Below are positions 7,657 to 64,000 of a DNA stretch of 64,000 bases, one piece after another. The DNA is from Nitrospirota bacterium (lineage in GTDB: Bacteria > Nitrospirota > JACRHJ01), in NCBI GenBank assembly GCA_021789495.1, contig JAJYJM010000007.1, positions 10,230 to 74,229 of the forward strand, written 5' to 3'. Every line of letters starts with the position of its first letter. The stretch's first letter is position 1. Position numbers and translations under genes: made by a program. The notes under the pieces are model-generated. The model made no database searches. It saw only the letters and a program-made list of their open reading frames with translations, and was not told the origin of the DNA.

Positions 7657-8958
7657 ATGCTTACTCAGGCCATAAAAGGCGTTAAGGACGTACTCCCGGA
7701 GGACTCAGTCAAGTGGCGGCATCTTGAGGGTGTTGTCCGGAAGCTGTTCTCCGACTACGGGTTCTCGGAAATCCGCACGCCGATAATCGAGCATACAATC
7801 CTCTTCGCCCGGAGCATCGGCGCAACGTCCGACATCGTCGAGAAGGAGATGTACGCCTTCAAGGACCAGGGCGGAGACGAAATCACCCTGCGCCCCGAAG
7901 GCACGGCTGGCGTCGTGCGGGCGTATGTAGAGCATAAGCTCTTCGCCTCCCGGTCCGTTACTAAGGTATATTACATGGGGCCGATGTTCCGGCGGGAGCG
8001 TCCGCAGGCGGGGCGGCTTCGGCAATTCCATCAAATAGGTGTCGAAGCCCTCGGAGTATCAGAGCCTGGGATTGACGTGGACATCCTGGCGGCGCTTGTC
8101 GAGCTCTTCAGCCGACTGAAGGTGCAGGGCGTGGAGTTGCATATCAATTCCCTGGGATGCAGGGATTGCCGGGCGGCGTATAAAATCGCGCTTAAGAACT
8201 TCCTGACGGGGAAAATAGATTCACTCTGCCCTGATTGCCAGAGGCGGGTCGAGACCAATCCCCTGCGTGCGCTGGACTGCAAATCGGAGCATTGCGAGGC
8301 CGCCACAGCCGATGCGCCGATGATGTTGGAATACCTTGACAGCGATTGCCGGGCGCATTTCGAAAGCGTGAAGCAGGGCCTCGACGACCTTGGGATAAGG
8401 TATGTCATAAATCCCAGGATGGTTCGCGGACTCGATTACTACACCCGCACGACCTTCGAGATGATAGCCGTGGACAAGAAAGGCGCGCAGAACGCCGTCG
8501 CCGCAGGCGGGAGATACGACAGCCTCGTGGAAGAGATCGGCGGTCCGCCCACTCCGGGGATAGGTTTCGCCATTGGAGTCGAACGCCTGCTGCTTATGCT
8601 CCCGGAGGCGGGAGACAGCGCGCCGCTGCCGAAGGTATATATTGCGGCAATCGGCGGCGAAGCGGCAAGATTCGGGCAGAAACTCGCGGACGCCCTCAGG
8701 AAGTGCGGAATCTCCGCGGAGCGAGATTACTCGCCCGGAGGACTGAGAAACCAGATGAAAAAGGCCGACCGCTCCGGTGCGGCATACACTGTAATCATCG
8801 GCGAGGACGAGATGACAAAGGGCGCGGCCATCCTCCGCGACATGAAGACGAGAGAGCAGTCGGAAGTGAAACTCGACGAAATGGTGGAAGAAATAAAAAA
8901 ACGTGTCGCGGCCTTTTCCACGGACGCAAACAACGAGCACGGGACACGGTTCTTATGA
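7657..8958 (+). CDS. hisS: Histidine--tRNA ligase
   Basis: 433 aa with class II aaRS HisRS motifs (…ITLRPEGTAGVVRAY…, GGRYD). Confidence 0.95.
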   Translation: MLTQAIKGVKDVLPEDSVKWRHLEGVVRKLFSDYGFSEIRTPIIEHTILFARSIGATSDIVEKEMYAFKDQGGDEITLRPEGTAGVVRAYVEHKLFASRSVTKVYYMGPMFRRERPQAGRLRQFHQIGVEALGVSEPGIDVDILAALVELFSRLKVQGVELHINSLGCRDCRAAYKIALKNFLTGKIDSLCPDCQRRVETNPLRALDCKSEHCEAATADAPMMLEYLDSDCRAHFESVKQGLDDLGIRYVINPRMVRGLDYYTRTTFEMIAVDKKGAQNAVAAGGRYDSLVEEIGGPPTPGIGFAIGVERLLLMLPEAGDSAPLPKVYIAAIGGEAARFGQKLADALRKCGISAERDYSPGGLRNQMKKADRSGAAYTVIIGEDEMTKGAAILRDMKTREQSEVKLDEMVEEIKKRVAAFSTDANNEHGTRFL

Positions 8959-42839: not shown

Positions 42840-42916
42840 TGGCAGGCCAGGAGGGATTCGAACCCCCAACACCCGGATTTGGAGTCCGGCGCTCTAACCG
42901 TTAGAGCTACTGGCCT
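42840..42916 (-). tRNA. tRNA-Trp (anticodon CCA)
   Basis: Cloverleaf folded by hand: acceptor AGGCCAG/CTGGCCT, anticodon loop CUCCAAA, T-loop TTCGAAT, and an encoded 3' CCA. Confidence 0.9.
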
Positions 42917-42947
42917 GTAGCTTCCCTTTGCTTACTTTTAAAACAGG

Positions 42948-43100
42948 CTAAGCCTTTGTTTCCTTGTGGACCGTATGGCTTCTGCAATGCTTGCAGTATT
43001 TTTTCAGCTCAAGCTTCTCCGTGGTGTTCTTCTTGTTCTTCATCGTGGAGTAGTTGCGCTGCTTGCAGGTCTGGCACGTAAGTAATATTATGTCACGCAT
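42948..43100 (-). CDS. rpmG: Ribosomal protein bL33 (50 aa; not in the ORF track)
   Basis: Manual translation gives [50 protein letters not shown]. Confidence 0.9.
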
Positions 43101-43110
43101 GATGTCCCCT

Positions 43111-44310
43111 TTACTCTATTATATCCGCGACGACGCCGGCGCCGACGGTTCTGCCGCCTTCGCGTATGGCGAAACGGAGTTCCTTCTCGCACGCTATCGG
43201 CGTGATAAGATCCACTTCCATCGAAACATTATCGCCCGGCATCACCATCTCCACTCCATCGGGAAGCTTCACGACTCCCGTCACGTCCGTCGTCCGGAAG
43301 TAGAACTGAGGACGATACCCGTTGAAGAAAGGAGTGTGCCTGCCGCCCTCTTCCTTCGTCAGGATATACGCCTCCGCCTTGAACTTCGTGTGCGGCGTGA
43401 TCGACTTGGGCTTCGCGAGAACCATACCGCGCTCAACCTCTTCCTTCTTCGTGCCGCGAAGAAGAACCCCAATGTTGTCGCCCGCCTGGCCCTGGTCGAG
43501 AAGCTTCCGGAACATCTCCACGCCCGTAACGATCGTCTTCTGCGTGTCCCGTATGCCGACTATCTCGACCTCGTCGCCGACCTTCACAATGCCGCGCTCA
43601 ACCCTGCCCGTTACGACAGTGCCGCGTCCCGAAATCGTGAACACGTCCTCCACAGGCATCAAAAACGGCTTATCTATCGCGCGCTCCGGCGTCGGAATGT
43701 AGCTGTCAACCGCGTCCATCAGATCCCAGATGCACTTATACTCAGCCGCGGCAGGGTCCGTGGACGCAGACTCAAGAGCCTTCAGCGCGCTCCCCTTCAC
43801 GATGGGTATGTCGTCGCCCGGAAACTCATACTTGCTTAAGAGCTCCCTAAGCTCAAGCTCCACAAGCTCGAGTAACTCAGGGTCGTCCACCATGTCAACC
43901 TTGTTCATGAACACCACTATATATGGAACGCCGACCTGACGCGCAAGAAGTATGTGCTCCCGCGTCTGCGGCATCGGACCGTCCGCAGCAGAAACAACCA
44001 GTATCGCGCCGTCCATCTGCGCCGCGCCCGTTATCATGTTCTTCACGTAGTCCGCATGGCCGGGGCAGTCGACGTGAGCATAGTGACGGTTCCCCGTCTC
44101 ATACTCCACGTGAGCAGTCGCTATCGTTATGCCGCGCTCACGCTCCTCAGGAGCCTTGTCTATCTGGTCGAATGCCGTAAACTTCGCCTGACCCTTCGTC
44201 GCAAGCGTCTTCGTTATCGCCGCCGTCAACGTCGTCTTACCGTGATCTACATGACCTATCGTCCCAACATTGACATGCGGCTTCTTCCTCTCAAACTTCT
44301 CCTTTGCCAT
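43111..44310 (-). CDS. tuf: Elongation factor Tu (copy 2; CDS identical to copy 1)
   Basis: The 399-aa product is identical to the 26471..27670 product. The flanks diverge exactly at the start and stop codons. Confidence 0.98.
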
Positions 44311-44411
44311 GCTCACCCCCTGAAAAGGAAATACACGAAGGTGCAAACCCTCCCCGCGTCCGGTTCAATGCCGTTTTCGCCGGAAGACTTTCCCCTCGCC
44401 TGACTGTTTCC

Positions 44412-44487
<76 letters not shown>

Positions 44488-44501
44488 CTGCTTTTCTTTC
44501 A

Positions 44502-45752
44502 CTACCTGCCCAAGTCTTCGCGCCACTCCCGCTCAAATTCCGGGAGGCTCACGCCCGCGGCATATTTCATGGCCCCGGATACGTCCTTGCCCTTGCCCAT
44601 GTCCTTCAAAAGCTGGGAGAGGCTGTATATCCCGTATGTATTTACGTAATACCTTACGGCAGAGAGCGATTCGGCGTATGCCTCCCTCGCCTTTGTCGCG
44701 TCAAGCTTCGCAAACGTCGAATCAAGGCTGCTTAGCGGCACGGGCGTAAAATCGCCAGACTTGCGCCGACTGGCCCAGTGTTCCTCGTACTGCGCTACCC
44801 CTTCGTCCAGCCAGGCAGGCACATGACCGCTTATCTCCGTGTGTATCACGGCATGAGTGTATTCGTGGTGAAGCACAGCCGAAAGCGCCGTCCTGTCTAT
44901 CATGCCGCCGCCCGCGGGTATCCTGATGTTGCCGTCGAAGATTCCGTCGGACCACGCCGGCGCGTGAGTTATATCGACAAACTGGCGCTTGGTATAGAGG
45001 ATGACGTTAACGGGCTCCTTCTGGTAGAAGTCGAGGTCGCTCCCGACATCCGACGCGACATCCTGAAGGATGTCAAGCACAAACTCGCCCAGTTTTCTGT
45101 CTTCCTCGCCGTCGTATTTTAAATTGAAGTTATAGGTTTCCCTCTTTGTGAAGGAGCCTTCAACTCCAAGCTCTTTACTGGCCTTCGCAAGCAGGCCCTG
45201 TATGACCTTGTCCTGCGGCTTGTCCTGGAGGGCCTGTTCCCACTCCGAGACGGCGTCCCTGAGTCGCCCCTGTTTATAATAAACCTCGCCCTTGAGCGTC
45301 CGGGCCTGCGCGCTGGAAGGCTTCAGGTAAAGCGCCTCGTCGAGATAACCCTGCGCGTCGTCCATCTGCTCCAGGCGATAGGAGCAGTATGCAAGCCCGA
45401 AATACGTCGAGAACTCCTTCTCCGGCTCGTCAAGGCGCGCCTTCCCGAAGTCCTCAAGCGCTTCCTTGAAATCTCCGGCGTTTAACCTCTTCCAGCCCCG
45501 CCCGTCGTATGCCTGGGCGAGGAGAGTTTTGTAGTCGTCGTCGAACGGGTCCTGGAATCCGGCGCCTTCAAGTATCTTTATCGCGCCGTCGAAGTCCCCG
45601 GCGTTAAGCGCCTGTATCGCCCGCCCCTTTGTCGTCCCGGCCTGCGCACTTATCACGGAATCGTCGGCGCGGCCATTCACGGCGAACGGCAGTATCGCAA
45701 AAAATACCGCAAGAGCCGCGAAAACAACTTTATATAGCGGAAGCCGGGTCAT
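44502..45752 (-). CDS. Secreted TPR-repeat protein with a C-terminal gluzincin (HExxH...E, Peptidase_MA-like) domain
   Basis: The internal ATG at 45752 gives a signal peptide MTRLPLYKVVFAALAVFFAIL, then TPR-like repeats, then HHEYTHAVIH...LDEGVAQYEE. The longer ORF N-terminus overlaps the tRNA genes. Confidence 0.8.
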   Translation of the reverse strand: MTRLPLYKVVFAALAVFFAILPFAVNGRADDSVISAQAGTTKGRAIQALNAGDFDGAIKILEGAGFQDPFDDDYKTLLAQAYDGRGWKRLNAGDFKEALEDFGKARLDEPEKEFSTYFGLAYCSYRLEQMDDAQGYLDEALYLKPSSAQARTLKGEVYYKQGRLRDAVSEWEQALQDKPQDKVIQGLLAKASKELGVEGSFTKRETYNFNLKYDGEEDRKLGEFVLDILQDVASDVGSDLDFYQKEPVNVILYTKRQFVDITHAPAWSDGIFDGNIRIPAGGGMIDRTALSAVLHHEYTHAVIHTEISGHVPAWLDEGVAQYEEHWASRRKSGDFTPVPLSSLDSTFAKLDATKAREAYAESLSAVRYYVNTYGIYSLSQLLKDMGKGKDVSGAMKYAAGVSLPEFEREWREDLGR

Positions 45753-45787
45753 CGAACCCCTCTTGCGCCCCCCGGCCCGCGGCGTTA

Positions 45788-45863
45788 TGGAGCGGGCGAC
45801 GGGGCTCGAACCCGCGACCCCCAGCTTGGAAGGCTGGCGCTCTACCAACTGAGCTACACCCGC
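45788..45863 (-). tRNA. tRNA-Gly (anticodon TCC)
   Basis: GCGGGTGTAGCTCAGTTGGTAGAGC...CUUCCAA loop...TTCGAGC...CGCCCGCTCCA. Confidence 0.9.
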
Positions 45864-45881
45864 AAGACTAATCAAATTAGA

Positions 45882-45968
45882 TGGTGGGGAGGGGAGGGTT
45901 CGAACCTCCGTAGGTGCAAGACCGGCAGATTTACAGTCTGCTGCCATTAACCGCTCGGCCACCTCCCC
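45882..45968 (-). tRNA. tRNA-Tyr (anticodon GTA) with a long variable arm
   Basis: GGGGAGGTGGCCGAGCGG...GACUGUAAAUC...long variable arm...TTCGAAC...CCTCCCCACCA. Confidence 0.9.
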
Positions 45969-46116
45969 GTTCAAGCCGCCTGCGGGGGAATCCATCGGGC
46001 GACATCTTATACATTATAGCCGAAATTTTGTCAACCCTTTATTTCTAAAGGATTTAAAAAGCGCCACGCGCAGGATTAAAACGCTGCCCGCCTCCCCCTG
46101 CCGCCCGCCGTAGAAC

Positions 46117-46192
46117 TGGAGCTGGCGAGAGGGGTCGAACCTCCGACCTGCTGATTACAAGTCAGCTGCTCTACCAACTGAGCTACGCCAGC
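46117..46192 (-). tRNA. tRNA-Thr (anticodon TGT)
   Basis: GCTGGCGTAGCTCAGTTGGTAGAGC...ACUUGUAAU loop...TTCGACC...CGCCAGCTCCA. Confidence 0.9.
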
Positions 46193-58273: not shown

Positions 58274-58310
58274 AAAAACGACACCGGTTAAGGGGGTGTC
58301 GTTTTTATTT
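58274..58310. terminator. Bidirectional intrinsic terminator (ACGACACC-GGTTAAGG-GGTGTCGT with A5 upstream and T5ATTTT downstream)
   Basis: 8-bp stem; terminates the convergent relE/parE gene and the plus-strand small transcript. Confidence 0.8.
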
Positions 58311-58589
58311 TAGATTCCTTCTTCCGTGAATCACTCCGAGGATGACTACATTGGATTCTTCAATTTTATACATCAGCCGGTATTCTTTTACAAAAAGTTC
58401 CCGCACATCTTTATCCCCAAATTCCGGGACAACCCGGCCTCTTTCGGCAAAATTTCTTAAAGATCGACCGGCATCAATTATTTCCCGCACGAATGATGCG
58501 GCATAGAATTCAGAATCTTTCGTGATGTAGTCGGCTATATCTGTAAGGTCGGTAGCGGCTTCATGTGACCAGACTACCTTCCGAGCCAT
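58305..58589 (-). CDS. RelE/ParE-family type II toxin
   Basis: 94 aa, MARKVVWSHEAATDLTDIADYI...; ATG start verified; 16-nt overlap with the upstream antitoxin gene. Confidence 0.8.
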   Translation of the reverse strand: MARKVVWSHEAATDLTDIADYITKDSEFYAASFVREIIDAGRSLRNFAERGRVVPEFGDKDVRELFVKEYRLMYKIEESNVVILGVIHGRRNLK

Positions 58590-58771
58590 TTGGCCACCCT
58601 TTGCTCAACTTCATCCTGCGAATAGACTTTTCCCTCGCTCGCATCCTTCATGCCCCGTTCAAGCTTCTGTATAACAAAAAGGTGATACTGAATGTCTTCC
58701 AAGGTGCATTCATCAGGAAGATTCGTAAGGAGCTTGCTTACTTCCTCTTTTGCAGTCTGCATATTAACCAT
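58574..58771 (-). CDS. Putative antitoxin partner of the RelE/ParE toxin
   Basis: 65 aa from the ATG that follows a GGAGG SD (MVNMQTAKEEV…RVAKWLGR); the family is not firmly assigned. Confidence 0.55.
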   Translation of the reverse strand: MVNMQTAKEEVSKLLTNLPDECTLEDIQYHLFVIQKLERGMKDASEGKVYSQDEVEQRVAKWLGR

Positions 58772-58839
58772 ACCTCCATAAGAAACTACCACAAGTATAT
58801 CATGTTATATAACATTAAAAAAATCAACTGCATATTCCG

Positions 58840-60497: not shown

Positions 60498-60539
60498 CAC
60501 ATCCCATATTTCTCATTCAGCGGGCCTTGTTGAAAATCA
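60498..60539. repeat. Copy 2 of the approximately 45-bp direct repeat (upstream of the small CPxCG gene)
   Basis: See copy 1; the two copies are 441 bp apart. Confidence 0.7.
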
Positions 60540-60869
60540 CCGGTTGACACATCTTTTTATTTTTCCCGTCCTTTCATAGAAAACCGCTCCCACTCGCTCT
60601 ATGTGCTCCAGCAGGTCGGGATTGGATATACTCTCGAAAATCGACAGGTCTATATGATACGGCAGGAGCAGGTCGTCCAGCTCGTTGTCTATCCTGAGCA
60701 GGGTCTTATGCGTCAGAGCGGAACCGATGAGCGTCAGGTCTATGTCTGAGCCTCTCTTGAAATTGCCCTTCGCGCGCGAGCCGTAGAGGATTGCCTTCTC
60801 GACTTCCGGAAAGCGGGACAGGACGGCGCCTATCTTCTCTATCGTCTCATCCTTCAGGCCGAACCTCAT
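60537..60869 (-). CDS. Minimal nucleotidyltransferase (MNT, Pol-beta superfamily; HI0073-like)
   Basis: …ILYGSRAKGNFKRGSDIDLTLIG… (GS…DxD). Confidence 0.8.
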   Translation of the reverse strand: MRFGLKDETIEKIGAVLSRFPEVEKAILYGSRAKGNFKRGSDIDLTLIGSALTHKTLLRIDNELDDLLLPYHIDLSIFESISNPDLLEHIERVGAVFYERTGKIKRCVNR

Positions 60870-61285
60870 GCGGATTCTTCCTTTTCCTTCAGCGGCTCCA
60901 ATTTTTTTTGCAGCTTGACGAATTCATTATAATATACGGTCTTTATAGCAAGGGCTATTTCGTCCGCGGTTTCCTCGTTATAGGTGTGGGTGGTCAACGC
61001 CCTGCTTTTAATCATATCCATCCAGGCTTCGCCTTCTTCTATCAACCCTCGCCTGAACGCCAGACGGAATGCGTCCCGGCTGCCATAGATATTGGTTTCG
61101 CCCCGGGCTTCCAAAAAATCCTTGAGCGTATTCCACGCAAGCTCATAGTTATATTCAAACGCCTGAATCAGACCCTGTTCTTCGAGCTCGCTCAACTCGC
61201 CTTTTTCGATGAACTTGGCAAGCTGTTCCAGGGCCTTGGAGAAATTATTGAACCGATGTATCCAACGTATGTCCTTTGCGGTCAT
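60866..61285 (-). CDS. HI0074-family nucleotidyltransferase substrate-binding (HEPN-like) protein
   Basis: 139-aa helical protein, ATGA-coupled to the MNT gene; AAGGAG SD 8 nt upstream of the ATG. Confidence 0.7.
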   Translation of the reverse strand: MTAKDIRWIHRFNNFSKALEQLAKFIEKGELSELEEQGLIQAFEYNYELAWNTLKDFLEARGETNIYGSRDAFRLAFRRGLIEEGEAWMDMIKSRALTTHTYNEETADEIALAIKTVYYNEFVKLQKKLEPLKEKEESA

Positions 61286-61394: not shown

Positions 61395-61423
61395 TTGACT
61401 TTACAAGGCGTTCCACGTAGACT
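61395..61423 (+). promoter_or_regulatory. Candidate sigma-70 promoter (TTGACT-17-TAGACT) ending 7 nt before the ATG at 61431 (possible leaderless start)
   Basis: Hexamers read directly. Confidence 0.4.
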
Positions 61424-61430
61424 TCTCCGG

Positions 61431-62486
61431 ATGGGAAAAATTGGATTTACCACCACCGTCCCCGTGGAAGTTATCCTCGCCGCGGGGCTTACTCCGGCAG
61501 ACTTAAACAACATCTTCATAACCCGGGACGACCCAGGCGATGTCGTTGACCGCGCCGAGGCGCTCGGTTTCCCCCGGACGACCTGCGGCTGGATCAAGGG
61601 CATATACCTGTGCGCAAAGGAAGCGGGGATAAATAAAATAGTCTCCGTAACCCAGGGAGACTGCTCGAATACCCACGCCCTGATGGAGCTCTGGCAGGCG
61701 GACGGGATGAATATCATGCCGTTCGCATATCCTTACGACCGGGACAGGGACCTGCTTAAACTCCAGGTGCGAAAGCTCATGGACGCGCTTGGGACGAGCG
61801 AGGAGAAAACCAAGAAGGTCTTTCGCGGGCTTGTTCCGCTAAGAAAGAAACTTAAGCGCGTAGACGATATGACATGGAAGGACGGCAGGGTCACGGGCGC
61901 CGAGAACCACCTCTGGCTTGTGTCCGCGAGCGATTTCGACGGCGACAGGGAGAACTTCGAGGCGCGGCTGGACAGGTTCCTGGCGGAGGCCGAAAAGCGG
62001 GAAAGCCGGAGCCCGATGGGGCGCGACGCCCTCGGCGCGCCGAAAGAGAGCGGTTCGCCCAGGGGTCGAACCCTGCGAAAGCCGCCGTCTGTAAGGCTCG
62101 GATACATAGGCGTGCCGCCGATATTTTCAGACCTCTACGAAACGGTCGAGCGGGCAGGCGCGCGCGTGGTATTCAACGAGGTGCAGAGGCAGTTTTCCAT
62201 GCTGCACGATACGGGCGATTTATACGAGCAGTATGCCAGGTACACATACCCCTACGACGTCTTCGGACGCATCCGGGACATTGCCAGGCAGATAAAACTC
62301 CGGCGCATCGACGGCATAATACACTACTGCCAGAGCTTCTGTTTCCGGGCGATAGAAGACCTCATCATCAGGCGGGAACTGAAGCTCCCCGTGCTGACAA
62401 TCGAAGGCGACAGGCCGGGACCAGTGGACGCCAGGACGCGCATCCGGCTGGAAGGATTCGTCGAGATGCTTGGGGATATGAAATGA
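61431..62486 (+). CDS. 2-hydroxyacyl-CoA dehydratase-family protein (HgdB/HadC D-component-like)
   Basis: The ATG at 61431 gives MGKIGFTTTVPVEVILAAG…; C-terminal …YCQSFCFRAIEDLIIRRELKLPVLTIEGDRPGPVDARTRIRLEGFVEML; the TTG start at 61395 is the alternative. Confidence 0.7.
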   Translation: MGKIGFTTTVPVEVILAAGLTPADLNNIFITRDDPGDVVDRAEALGFPRTTCGWIKGIYLCAKEAGINKIVSVTQGDCSNTHALMELWQADGMNIMPFAYPYDRDRDLLKLQVRKLMDALGTSEEKTKKVFRGLVPLRKKLKRVDDMTWKDGRVTGAENHLWLVSASDFDGDRENFEARLDRFLAEAEKRESRSPMGRDALGAPKESGSPRGRTLRKPPSVRLGYIGVPPIFSDLYETVERAGARVVFNEVQRQFSMLHDTGDLYEQYARYTYPYDVFGRIRDIARQIKLRRIDGIIHYCQSFCFRAIEDLIIRRELKLPVLTIEGDRPGPVDARTRIRLEGFVEMLGDMK

Positions 62487-63244
62487 CTCGCGCGGGGATG
62501 GATCTGGGTTCCAGGCAGGTAAAGATCGTCCTGGCGAAGGGCGGCGAAATAGCGCTCAAAAAGAGCTTCGACACCGCCGCGTTTTACAAGGAATACGGAA
62601 GCATCAAAGGCGGCCTGCTGTCCGTGGAGTTTACGAGGCTTGGCCTTCCGGGCCGGTCGACCGGCGGCGTTACGCTGACGGTTACGGGCTACGGCAGAAA
62701 CGCCGTGAAGGTAACGGGCGCAAAGGTAATCTCCGAGGTGAAGGCGCACGCCGCAGGCGCGACATGGCAGACGGGTCTTAATGACTTCGTCCTGCTCGAC
62801 ATAGGCGGACAGGATACGAAGGTCGCAAAGGTGTCGGGCGGCAGGATGGAGGACTTTATAATGAACGACAAGTGCGCCGCATCGTCCGGGAGATACATCG
62901 AGAACATGGGAAGCGTGCTTCAGATGCCGATTGACGAAATGTCGCGCCACTTTGAGAACCCCGCGCAGCTCTCCGCCACCTGCGCGATATTCGGGGAAAG
63001 CGAGATAATCCAGAAGATGACCGAAGGGACGCCGCCGGGCGAGATTGCGGCTGGAGTGAACTTAAGCGTCGTAAAGCGCGTGCTCCCGATGCTGGCCCGG
63101 TTCCCGGACGGCCCGGTTGTCTTCGCGGGCGGTGTCGCGCAGAACGCTGCGGTGACATATTTCATAAAGGACAGGACTGGCCGGGAGGTGATTGTCGTCC
63201 CGGAGCCGGTATATAACGGGGCGATAGGATGCGCGTACTTGTAA
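62483..63244 (+). CDS. CoA-substrate-specific enzyme activase (HgdC/BadF/BcrAD-family ATPase)
   Basis: ATGA-coupled; MTRAGMDLGSRQVKIVLAKGG… (ASKHA fold) …DIGGQDTK…AGGVAQN. Confidence 0.8.
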   Translation: MTRAGMDLGSRQVKIVLAKGGEIALKKSFDTAAFYKEYGSIKGGLLSVEFTRLGLPGRSTGGVTLTVTGYGRNAVKVTGAKVISEVKAHAAGATWQTGLNDFVLLDIGGQDTKVAKVSGGRMEDFIMNDKCAASSGRYIENMGSVLQMPIDEMSRHFENPAQLSATCAIFGESEIIQKMTEGTPPGEIAAGVNLSVVKRVLPMLARFPDGPVVFAGGVAQNAAVTYFIKDRTGREVIVVPEPVYNGAIGCAYL

Positions 63245-64000
63245 TCAGCACGAACAGGGAGATGTCCCCGCAGCCGGTCGCGCCCGTCGGGGCGGCGTGG
63301 ATTGCCCAGGCGCTCTCCCAGGCGGGTTTCGAGGCTCGGCTCCTTGACCTTTCCTTCGAGAAAGACCCGCCCCGCCGTATATTGAATGAGCTTGCCGAAT
63401 TCAGTCCCGAAGGCATAGCGCTCTCCGTCCGGAACGCCGACAACGGAGACTTCCTCGGCCCCAGGAGCTTCCTGCCGGACGTAAGGGAAATCACCGGGAT
63501 TATAAAGGAGCACAGTTCCGCGCGCATGATAATCGGCGGCCCCGGAGTCAGCATAATGCCCTCGGAGATACTGAACTACCTTGGCCTTGACTGGGCCTGC
63601 ATGGGCGAGGGCGAGGAGGCGGTAGTCGCGTTTTTCGGGGCCAAGAGGCCGGAGGACGCCGAAGGTTTTCCGGGGATAGTGTCAAGGAAATCATCCCCGT
63701 CCGGCGCGGAGCGCAGGCAGTGGATAAAACCGGATACCGTGAAGCCGAAGCTGTACGGATGGGTGGACGTAAAGCGGTACCTGAAGTTCGAGCCTGTGCT
63801 CCCCGTGCAGGGCAAAAGAGGCTGCGCCAACAACTGCCTGTACTGCACTTACAACCGCATCGAGGGCCGCTCCTGGAGACCCAGGGATCCGTCCGTCGTG
63901 GCGGAGGAGATTTCCGAGCTTATCTCCCGCACGGGCGCACGGACGTTCGAGTTCGTGGACAGCATATTCAACCAGCCGGAAGGTTACATGGAGGCCCTGC
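63229..64000 (+). CDS. B12-binding-domain radical SAM protein (partial; runs off the window end; not in the ORF track)
   Basis: Manual translation is open to the window edge: MRVLVISTNREMSPQP…GKRGCANNCLYCTYNRIEG… (CxxxCxxC), preceded by a cobalamin-binding-like N-terminal domain. Confidence 0.7.
   Translation, partial: MRVLVISTNREMSPQPVAPVGAAWIAQALSQAGFEARLLDLSFEKDPPRRILNELAEFSPEGIALSVRNADNGDFLGPRSFLPDVREITGIIKEHSSARMIIGGPGVSIMPSEILNYLGLDWACMGEGEEAVVAFFGAKRPEDAEGFPGIVSRKSSPSGAERRQWIKPDTVKPKLYGWVDVKRYLKFEPVLPVQGKRGCANNCLYCTYNRIEGRSWRPRDPSVVAEEISELISRTGARTFEFVDSIFNQPEGYMEAL

Follow-up and report, generated by a model that had tools for sequence, protein, structure and literature searches.

The described members of the superfamily of 2-hydroxyacyl-CoA dehydratases (HAD) combine a common fold with ATP-dependent electron activation, but differ in how their PF06050 subunits are assembled. 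The dehydratases HadBC/HadI (3O3M) and HgdAB/HgdC are paralogous heterodimers accompanied by CoA-transferase genes, each subunit carrying a three-cysteine [4Fe-4S] pattern (PMC7317905), while class I benzoyl-CoA reductases (BzdNOPQ, 8S02; MbdONPQ, 9GAI) contain two PF06050 and two ATPase subunits. Double-cubane-cluster proteins (DCCP), such as DCCP/DCCP-R of Carboxydothermus hydrogenoformans (6ENO, 7YYL) and YjiM/YjiL of E. coli, consist of a lone PF06050 protein with its own activating ATPase, or archerase, and are marked by a motif of seven cysteines, six of which ligate an [8Fe-9S] cluster (PMC7317905). Plasmalogen synthase PlsA/PlsR and the glycerol ester reductase Ger act on membrane lipids (PMC12838417, PMC13159169). 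Here we describe a locus at the end of a 64,000-nucleotide (nt) stretch of a Nitrospirota genome (contig JAJYJM010000007.1, positions 10,230 to 74,229; hereafter the window), in which a gene for a lone dehydratase-like protein (gene A) is followed by that of a putative activase (gene B) and by a gene for a B12-binding radical S-adenosylmethionine (SAM) enzyme (gene C). The best explanation, to which we lean with somewhat better than even confidence, is a recent merger of two independently conserved units, A-B and C, and not a recurrent three-component system.

A-B is a widespread conserved unit of its own. More than 7,400 homologs of A were found, mostly of 325-345 amino acids (aa; about 330 aa for the family), and a pattern scan with one genome per species places A in at least 592 genomes. 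Identity is still 52-56% in Thermodesulfobacteriota, Bacillota, Armatimonadota and Planctomycetota, and the family also extends across Nitrospirota. Eighty neighbourhoods of A were retrieved, of which the 74 with a called A open reading frame (ORF) were used for counts: B lies directly downstream in 45, a second dehydratase-like subunit adjoins A in none, across many phyla, and C is adjacent only in the four closest Nitrospirota. An exhaustive profile search recovered single-chain A-B fusions of about 590-640 aa (P0242, P0248, P0261, P0327 and P0322), independent evidence that A and B work together; two longer fusions, P0301 (826 aa) and P0317 (968 aa), carry N-terminal extensions without annotation. 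The original prediction had called the lone HgdB-like subunit atypical, but given the breadth of the family and its fusions with the activase, a lone subunit is the rule. It had also presented the activase/dehydratase pair beside a B12 radical SAM enzyme as a characteristic combination, a view that the counts contradict: C stands by A in 4 of 80 genomes, and no A or B was found near C in any of 26 loci with more distant C orthologs.

These 26 loci, whose C orthologs are at most 68% identical to that of the window, show C in a setting of its own. A UbiE-like methyltransferase gene lies just downstream of C in 21 of them, most of which also encode a peptidase-U32 protein, and then comes either a type III polyketide synthase (PKS; Geobacter-type loci) or, in Nitrospirota, a FabF-type synthase (499 bits to TIGR03150). 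In full, the order is B12 radical SAM enzyme, a 284-aa protein, methyltransferase and U32 protein, with a type III PKS last in Geobacterales and a FabF-type synthase last in Nitrospirota, as exemplified by Citrifermentans bemidjiense (CP001124, 1,193,202-1,204,611; L085 10001-16838) and by loci L089, L093-L095 and L098-L113. The loci with a type III PKS contain, on the opposite strand, a second B12 radical SAM gene resembling BchE/HpnR. Orthologs at 52-68% identity come from Nitrospirota and Geobacteraceae. The presence of A-B upstream is restricted to C sequences that share at least 81% identity with the window's, with ndk following wherever the contig reaches that far, and the C-linked A-B are confined to one narrow Nitrospirota clade (A at least 74%, C at least 81% identical).

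The way in which B and C became neighbours is suggested by a tree of C and an alignment of the junction. In the neighbour-joining tree, rooted with 39%-identical outgroups, gene contexts are successively nested: a Geobacter-type clade in which C is accompanied by methyltransferase, U32 protein and type III PKS; a group of Nitrospirota that has a ketoacyl synthase (KAS) in place of the PKS; C-ndk alone (L092); A-B followed by C-ndk, with C's own promoter; and A-B-C-ndk with overlapping genes. Such nesting makes the A-B-C trio the most derived state. The 16-nt overlap of B and C is common to four loci (the window's, L001, and L005, L008 and L090), in place of which a sister sub-clade (L006, L007, L091 and L097) has a spacer of about 66 nt containing a promoter (TTGCAA-17-TATAAT, 10/12, the best match of the region). 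One clean insertion or deletion (indel) of about 96 nt, spanning the last codons and stop of B, the spacer and the first codons of C, accounts for the difference in the alignment (A5), and as the C-termini of B orthologs in other loci are longer, it is more simply explained by a deletion in the window's sub-clade. Upstream of A, the window's clade and L010, the latter without C, both have an alanine racemase gene, so that A-B appears to occupy the older position and C-ndk to be the newcomer that came to lie beside it.

Tree and alignment together suggest three steps. C would first have become linked to ndk; A-B would then have come to be located upstream, with C keeping its own promoter; and the indel of about 96 bp, most simply a deletion, would finally have removed this promoter in the window's sub-clade and produced the 16-nt overlap. 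The translational coupling claimed in the original prediction thus stands as far as the overlaps are concerned, both A/B and B/C being real, but the coupling of B with C is a recent product of this indel. In the window, both A and C retain all residues that are invariant in their families (51-sequence alignment of A; alignment of C), relatives that lack the other partner included, which suggests that each protein keeps the function it has in those relatives. From this residue conservation, functional independence of A and C at this locus is mildly preferred, and the tight coupling of A-B with C would be a recent accident or a late recruitment.

The locus itself is best explained as a four-gene operon, A-B-C-ndk, with a leaderless mRNA (Table 1). 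All three domain assignments made from the bare sequence (dehydratase-like, activase, B12 radical SAM) were borne out by profile searches, and the two predicted overlaps were found as described, the ATG of B overlapping the TGA of A (ATGA) and the start of C lying 16 nt inside the end of B. C does run off the window; its full 476-aa protein (L001 10747-12177) was read on contigs identical to the window. An exact-protein look-up of B had returned four contigs, three of them identical to the last 3000 nt of the window, and one of the four is the NCBI contig DAHWRE010000042.1 of a metagenome-assembled genome. The gap from C to ndk is 69 nt. Downstream of the window, C is completed and followed by ndk, an HMGL-like/dCache gene and sdh/frd genes; an operon for benzoyl-CoA reductase or 2-hydroxyglutaryl-CoA dehydratase, which would have refuted the original prediction, is not there; in agreement with the predicted absence of an HgdA partner, A is the single PF06050 gene of the window and the identical contigs, with no second one in about 9 kb upstream or 6-8 kb downstream. 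Nor were CoA-transferase, benzoyl-CoA reductase or ring-reduction/aromatic-degradation genes found in this sequence. No signature of horizontal transfer was detected, the GC content being uniform across A, B and C (0.56-0.63), and a PADLOC search for anti-phage defence matched neither A nor B and returned for C a single weak match of a generic radical SAM kind.

Table 1. Features of the A-B-C-ndk locus. Positions are those of the window unless marked L001 (L001 coordinate = window coordinate minus 52482).
Feature	Position	Strand	Description
Operon promoter	-35 TTGACT 61395-61400, 17-nt spacer, -10 TAGACT 61418-61423 (L001 8913-8941)	+	sigma-70-type; pattern scan and alignment
Gene A	61431-62486	+	351 aa, PF06050 (HGD-D)
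A cysteine C52	61584-61586	+	invariant (alignments A1, A4)
A cysteine C78	61662-61664	+	invariant (alignments A1, A4)
A cysteine C304	62340-62342	+	invariant (alignments A1, A4)
Gene B	62483-63244	+	253 aa, TIGR00241 and PF01869, activase ("archerase", HgdC/YjiL type)
B cysteine C131 (NDKCAAS)	62873-62875	+	predicted cluster-binding, aligned to YjiL
B cysteine C167 (ATCAIFGESE)	62981-62983	+	predicted cluster-binding, aligned to YjiL
Gene C	63229-64000	+	257 of 476 codons inside the window; PF02310 and start of PF04055
Radical SAM motif of C	63823-63846	+	CANNCLYC (C199-x3-C203-x2-C206), from the translation
ndk	L001 12247-12675		after C, beyond the window; 209 bits to NF001908
Terminator hairpin	L001 12702-12739		after ndk, beyond the window; 16-bp stem and T run
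HMGL-like/dCache gene	L001 12781-14715		beyond the window end, 644 aa; then sdh/frd genes

The start of A deserves separate comment. The ORF listing runs from a TTG at 61395, but every homolog begins at the ATG at 61431 (MGKIGFTTT...). The -10 box of the putative promoter ends 7 nt ahead of this ATG, so that the mRNA would be leaderless. Scoring 9/12, the pattern does not by itself rise above chance, 4 sites having been found where 2.2 were expected. The arrangement is, however, conserved across seven Nitrospirota loci (alignment A3), where the -35 box (ATTGACTTTAC) is kept, the -10 box follows TAnnnT (TATAAT in L009, TATCAT in L010) and the gap from the -10 box to the ATG is fixed at 6-7 nt, whereas the bases of the spacer and those ahead of the ATG vary. 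This conservation supports the candidate leaderless transcript of the original prediction as the best reading. No Shine-Dalgarno sequence precedes the ATG in the window, and a search with Rfam for a leader RNA or cobalamin riboswitch upstream of A or C gave only five tRNAs, far off.

Several points weigh against a merger of functionally independent units. All eight distinct loci of the clade retain the adjacency and same-strand order of A-B-C-ndk; with its promoter lost, C must be co-expressed, which could have been selected for; and both units are oxygen-sensitive Fe-S radical enzymes, so that a functional link is chemically plausible. The sequence read comprises the 64-kb window and about 25 kb on which the locus lies, and partners of C were sought within these limits. 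The substrates and cluster types of the A and C families rest on analogy, the neighbour-joining tree of C is without support values, and several of the metagenome loci possibly come from the same population. The chief alternative, which takes up the original prediction, is that A, B and C form one pathway in this clade: A and B would dehydrate or reduce a lipid- or polyketide-like substrate by radical chemistry, and C would act on that substrate too, by a cobalamin-dependent radical methylation or rearrangement. Besides the conserved co-directional order and the B-C coupling in four loci, a single conserved promoter before A and a single strong terminator after ndk are consistent with such a pathway, and PlsA/PlsR and Ger provide superfamily precedent for chemistry on lipids (PMC12838417, PMC13159169). 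Yet the link is limited to one narrow clade, C has a near-consensus promoter of its own in the sister sub-clade, and A and C keep residues that are invariant in relatives without the other partner. The other contexts of A involve glutamate and mesaconate genes and not lipids, and neither lipid genes nor homologs of the methyltransferase, U32 protein, KAS or PKS, nor fatty acid synthase (FAS) genes, were found in the window and adjoining contig. A single pathway therefore seems unlikely, if still the most serious competitor of the merger.

Outside the window's clade, A-B is found in a different metabolic environment. In Bacillota it is often located within methylaspartate-pathway operons, which in Desulfitobacteriaceae, Peptococcaceae and relatives are complete and of the order glmS-mutL-glmE-mal-A-B, followed by AtuA/DUF4387, by class I fumarase/mesaconase subunits (fumA/fumB) or by citE/citF; loci of this type include L020, L026, L032, L041, L047, L051, L053, L057, L058, L065, L067 and L078, among others, with A at about position 8001 in most. 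The methylaspartate ammonia-lyase beside A-B scores 605 bits (cut-off 286) and the fumarase alpha subunit 430 bits (cut-off 276). A glutamate racemase gene is present within the locus of A in 29 of the 74 cases, and some methylaspartate-pathway gene in 27. In Negativicutes, a CofE-like gene lies upstream of A and a hydantoinase-like gene downstream. Armatimonadota-type loci (L012, L013, L014, L019, L024 and L044) have no archerase within 8 kb of A; in these, a small radical SAM gene resembling QueE or glycyl-radical activases abuts or overlaps the start of A (best NCBIfam match 58-60 bits, far under the cut-offs). No lipid-related genes occur in A contexts of these kinds. A figure of Kronen and Berg draws "MurI" and "HgdBC" in methylaspartate clusters, without comment (PMC4682846). 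A literature search for either module, A-B or C, returned no functional study, apart from this figure legend with its mention of "HgdBC".

The presence of cobalamin enzymes in two unrelated contexts of A-B, the glutamate mutase GlmS/GlmE and C (19 of 74 loci), raises a further alternative, namely that A and B together act as an ATP-driven supplier of very-low-potential electrons to cobalamin or radical enzymes, C at this locus and glutamate mutase in Bacillota, and convert no substrate of their own. ATP-dependent reductive activation of corrinoid proteins does exist as a principle, in the RACE proteins (PMC7317905). If this were the role of A-B, it would constitute a third kind of ATP-dependent reactivation system for corrinoid and radical enzymes, and the loss of C's promoter would be a selected step that tightened the partnership. 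However, no cobalamin enzyme lies nearby in 55 of the 74 loci, mesaconase genes occur without glutamate mutase in nine, and glutamate mutase is already served by MutL, a reactivase encoded in those very operons. The known activators of corrinoid proteins are members of another protein family, and the strong conservation of A (72 invariant columns), together with a predicted three-cysteine, open-site cluster typical of substrate-binding subunits, speaks against such a role. We regard the electron-supplier role as quite improbable.

The sequence of A places it within the superfamily but apart from its studied members. A matches PF06050 at 131.6 bits (cut-off 28.4) over residues 8-347, and exactly three cysteines, C52, C78 and C304, are among the 72 columns invariant in 51 aligned family members. 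Its AlphaFold2 model (mean predicted local distance difference test score, pLDDT, 90.4) was compared by Foldseek with HadB, HadC, DCCP, BzdNO and MbdON, giving template-modelling (TM) scores of 0.69-0.75 at 12-20% identity. Such nearly equal similarity to every solved member, with a three-cysteine site of the dehydratase/reductase kind in the lone-subunit-plus-archerase layout of double-cubane proteins, makes A, by sequence and model, a branch of its own. The three cysteines per subunit fit a predicted [4Fe-4S] cluster with one open iron. A low-complexity insert at residues ~190-220 (SRSPMGRDALGAPKESGSPRGRTLRKPPS), which the window protein shares with its closest relative alone, is predicted to be disordered (pLDDT 52-67).

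The two-gene layout resembles that of yjiM-yjiL, and A could accordingly be taken for a double-cubane-cluster protein of the DCCP/YjiM type that acts with its reductase on small molecules. The best sequence matches of A among solved structures are indeed the DCCP entries 7YYL and 6ENO (E 7e-12), its sole NCBIfam match is the double-cubane model NF040772, and it aligns with YjiM, a predicted double-cubane protein, with 96.8% probability, though at only about 23% identity. The NF040772 score is nevertheless 34.3 bits against a cut-off of 350, and the fold of A is no nearer to DCCP than to HadB/HadC or BzdNO. Its cysteines correspond to C78, C108 and C335 of YjiM, while YjiM C40, C59 and C247 are replaced by T7, N26 and V228, so that three of the seven motif cysteines are kept and a single cubane is expected instead of [8Fe-9S]. 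The A family is also shorter (about 330 aa) than the 380-420 aa of the class, by 50-90 residues (PMC7317905). Only a slim chance is left to this assignment. Slimmer still is the chance that A belongs, as beta subunit, to a canonical 2-hydroxyacyl-CoA dehydratase or benzoyl-CoA reductase with its alpha subunit encoded elsewhere, or that it is a decaying remnant: PF06050 is its only domain and source annotations read "HgdB/BcrC/BadD", but A is intact, 52-56% identical across phyla, free of any adjoining paralogous partner in 74 loci from many phyla, fused to the activase and not to a second dehydratase subunit, and without CoA-transferase or ring-reduction genes nearby.

B is assigned to the acyl-CoA dehydratase activases by TIGR00241 (168.6 bits, cut-off 125.4) and PF01869 (122 bits). 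It is 31% identical to E. coli YjiL, with which the cysteines of the DKCAA and CxxFxESE motifs align, and its translation contains the ATP-binding ASKHA motifs DLGS and DIGGQD. Matches to benzoyl-CoA reductase models are weak (BzdQ, 82.4 bits against 380; BcrA, 80.7 against 578; also BcrD). A-B thus shares the superfamily fold and ATP-dependent electron activation with class I benzoyl-CoA reductases, but has one subunit of each kind and lies far from their equivalog cut-offs. With HadBC/HadI and HgdAB/HgdC it shares the fold, the three-cysteine pattern and the kind of activator; A differs from the subunits of those heterodimers by its smaller size, by an identity to them of only 12-18% and by its occurrence as a lone subunit in 74 of 74 loci. 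PlsA/PlsR and Ger, HAD superfamily members with a built-in or adjacent activase, could have linked A-B with a "lipid" radical SAM enzyme and were compared by architecture only: PlsA/PlsR has two activation and two reduction/dehydration domains (PMC12838417), A-B one PF06050 and one activase. A lipid ether enzyme of the PlsA/PlsR or Ger kind was rejected for A-B on this difference and on the glutamate and mesaconate contexts of A.

C combines an N-terminal B12-binding domain with a radical SAM core. Its 257 codons within the window score 62.4 bits to PF02310, and the full-length protein 61.3 bits to PF02310 and 66 bits to PF04055. The best family model is TIGR04072 (rSAM_ladder_B12, "lipid biosynthesis B12-binding/radical SAM protein"; matched from position 1 to 432 of its 443), which has the same domain order and which C matches at 339.7 bits against a cut-off of 360, followed by BzaD at 175 bits. 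Five C orthologs, including that of Citrifermentans bemidjiense, score 324-347 bits; as C and these orthologs all fall below the cut-off, the C group is, on these scores, a sister clade of TIGR04072. Nitrospirota C orthologs adjoin a FabF-type ketoacyl synthase, a trait shared with TIGR04072, but the neighbours are otherwise methyltransferase, U32 protein and type III PKS or KAS, or A-B and ndk in the window's lineage. A ladderane or FAS-type lipid cluster, raised by the TIGR04072 match, was rejected, since C and its orthologs stay below the cut-off and FAS genes are missing from the window and contig. The cluster of C orthologs has the look of an oxygen-independent pathway whose product would be a phenolic lipid or quinone, methylated or hydroxylated; a literature search for a cluster of PKS III or FabF, methyltransferase, U32 protein and B12 radical SAM enzyme found no paper.

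The mechanism of A-B is likely to follow that of its studied relatives, with ATP-driven electron injection and ketyl-radical chemistry borrowed from HadBC and HgdAB. By analogy with HgdC and DCCP-R, B would be a dimeric ATPase holding a bridging [4Fe-4S] cluster through C131 and C167, which would accept an electron from ferredoxin or flavodoxin and, upon ATP hydrolysis, inject it into A. A would carry a single [4Fe-4S] cluster on C52, C78 and C304, with one iron free for a carbonyl or hydroxyl oxygen of the substrate. This would start either a dehydration through a ketyl radical or a reduction at very low potential, for which A would need no paralogous partner, being probably a homodimer. The neighbourhoods of A elsewhere suggest that its substrate may be a small acid or thioester akin to glutamate or C5-dicarboxylates, and not a lipid. 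C would be a cobalamin-dependent radical SAM enzyme, probably a C-methyltransferase; the gene cluster of its orthologs suggests as substrate a molecule derived from a polyketide or fatty acyl group, in which C would most likely methylate an unactivated or aromatic carbon, as is the case for cobalamin radical SAM enzymes with neighbourhoods of this type.

The surroundings of the operon contain several other features. The 644-aa protein encoded downstream of ndk has an HMGL-like domain that resembles citramalate, homocitrate and isopropylmalate synthases (119 bits to nifV, far under the cut-off), fused to a C-terminal dCache/PDC sensor domain; this fusion, unusual in a metabolic enzyme, is kept in L005-L007. 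Directly upstream of the operon, divergent on the opposite strand, two overlapping genes for NTP_transf_2 (110 aa) and NTase_sub_bind (139 aa) proteins (window 60537-61285, minus strand) have the look of an MNT/HEPN-type toxin-antitoxin pair. Further overlapping ORFs of 94 and 72 aa (58305-58792, minus strand) resemble, by eye, a ParE/RelE-type toxin and its antitoxin, and five tRNA genes are clustered at 42843-46192 on the minus strand (Rfam RF00005, 60-72 bits).

The A-B family emerges as a large and strongly conserved branch of the ATP-driven radical enzyme superfamily in strict anaerobes. Its short, lone, three-cysteine subunit sets it apart from heterodimeric dehydratases, four-subunit benzoyl-CoA reductases and seven-cysteine double-cubane proteins, the three architectures that have been studied. 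Its repeated presence in methylaspartate operons offers a concrete handle in the cultivable Desulfitobacterium and Desulfosporosinus. The context of C orthologs, in turn, points to an unstudied and apparently oxygen-independent cluster of PKS III or FabF, methyltransferase, U32 protein and B12 radical SAM enzyme. At the scale of genome organization, the locus clearly illustrates how two adjacent transcription units can become one translationally coupled operon through a small deletion, and warns against deducing function from the close packing of genes in a single genome.

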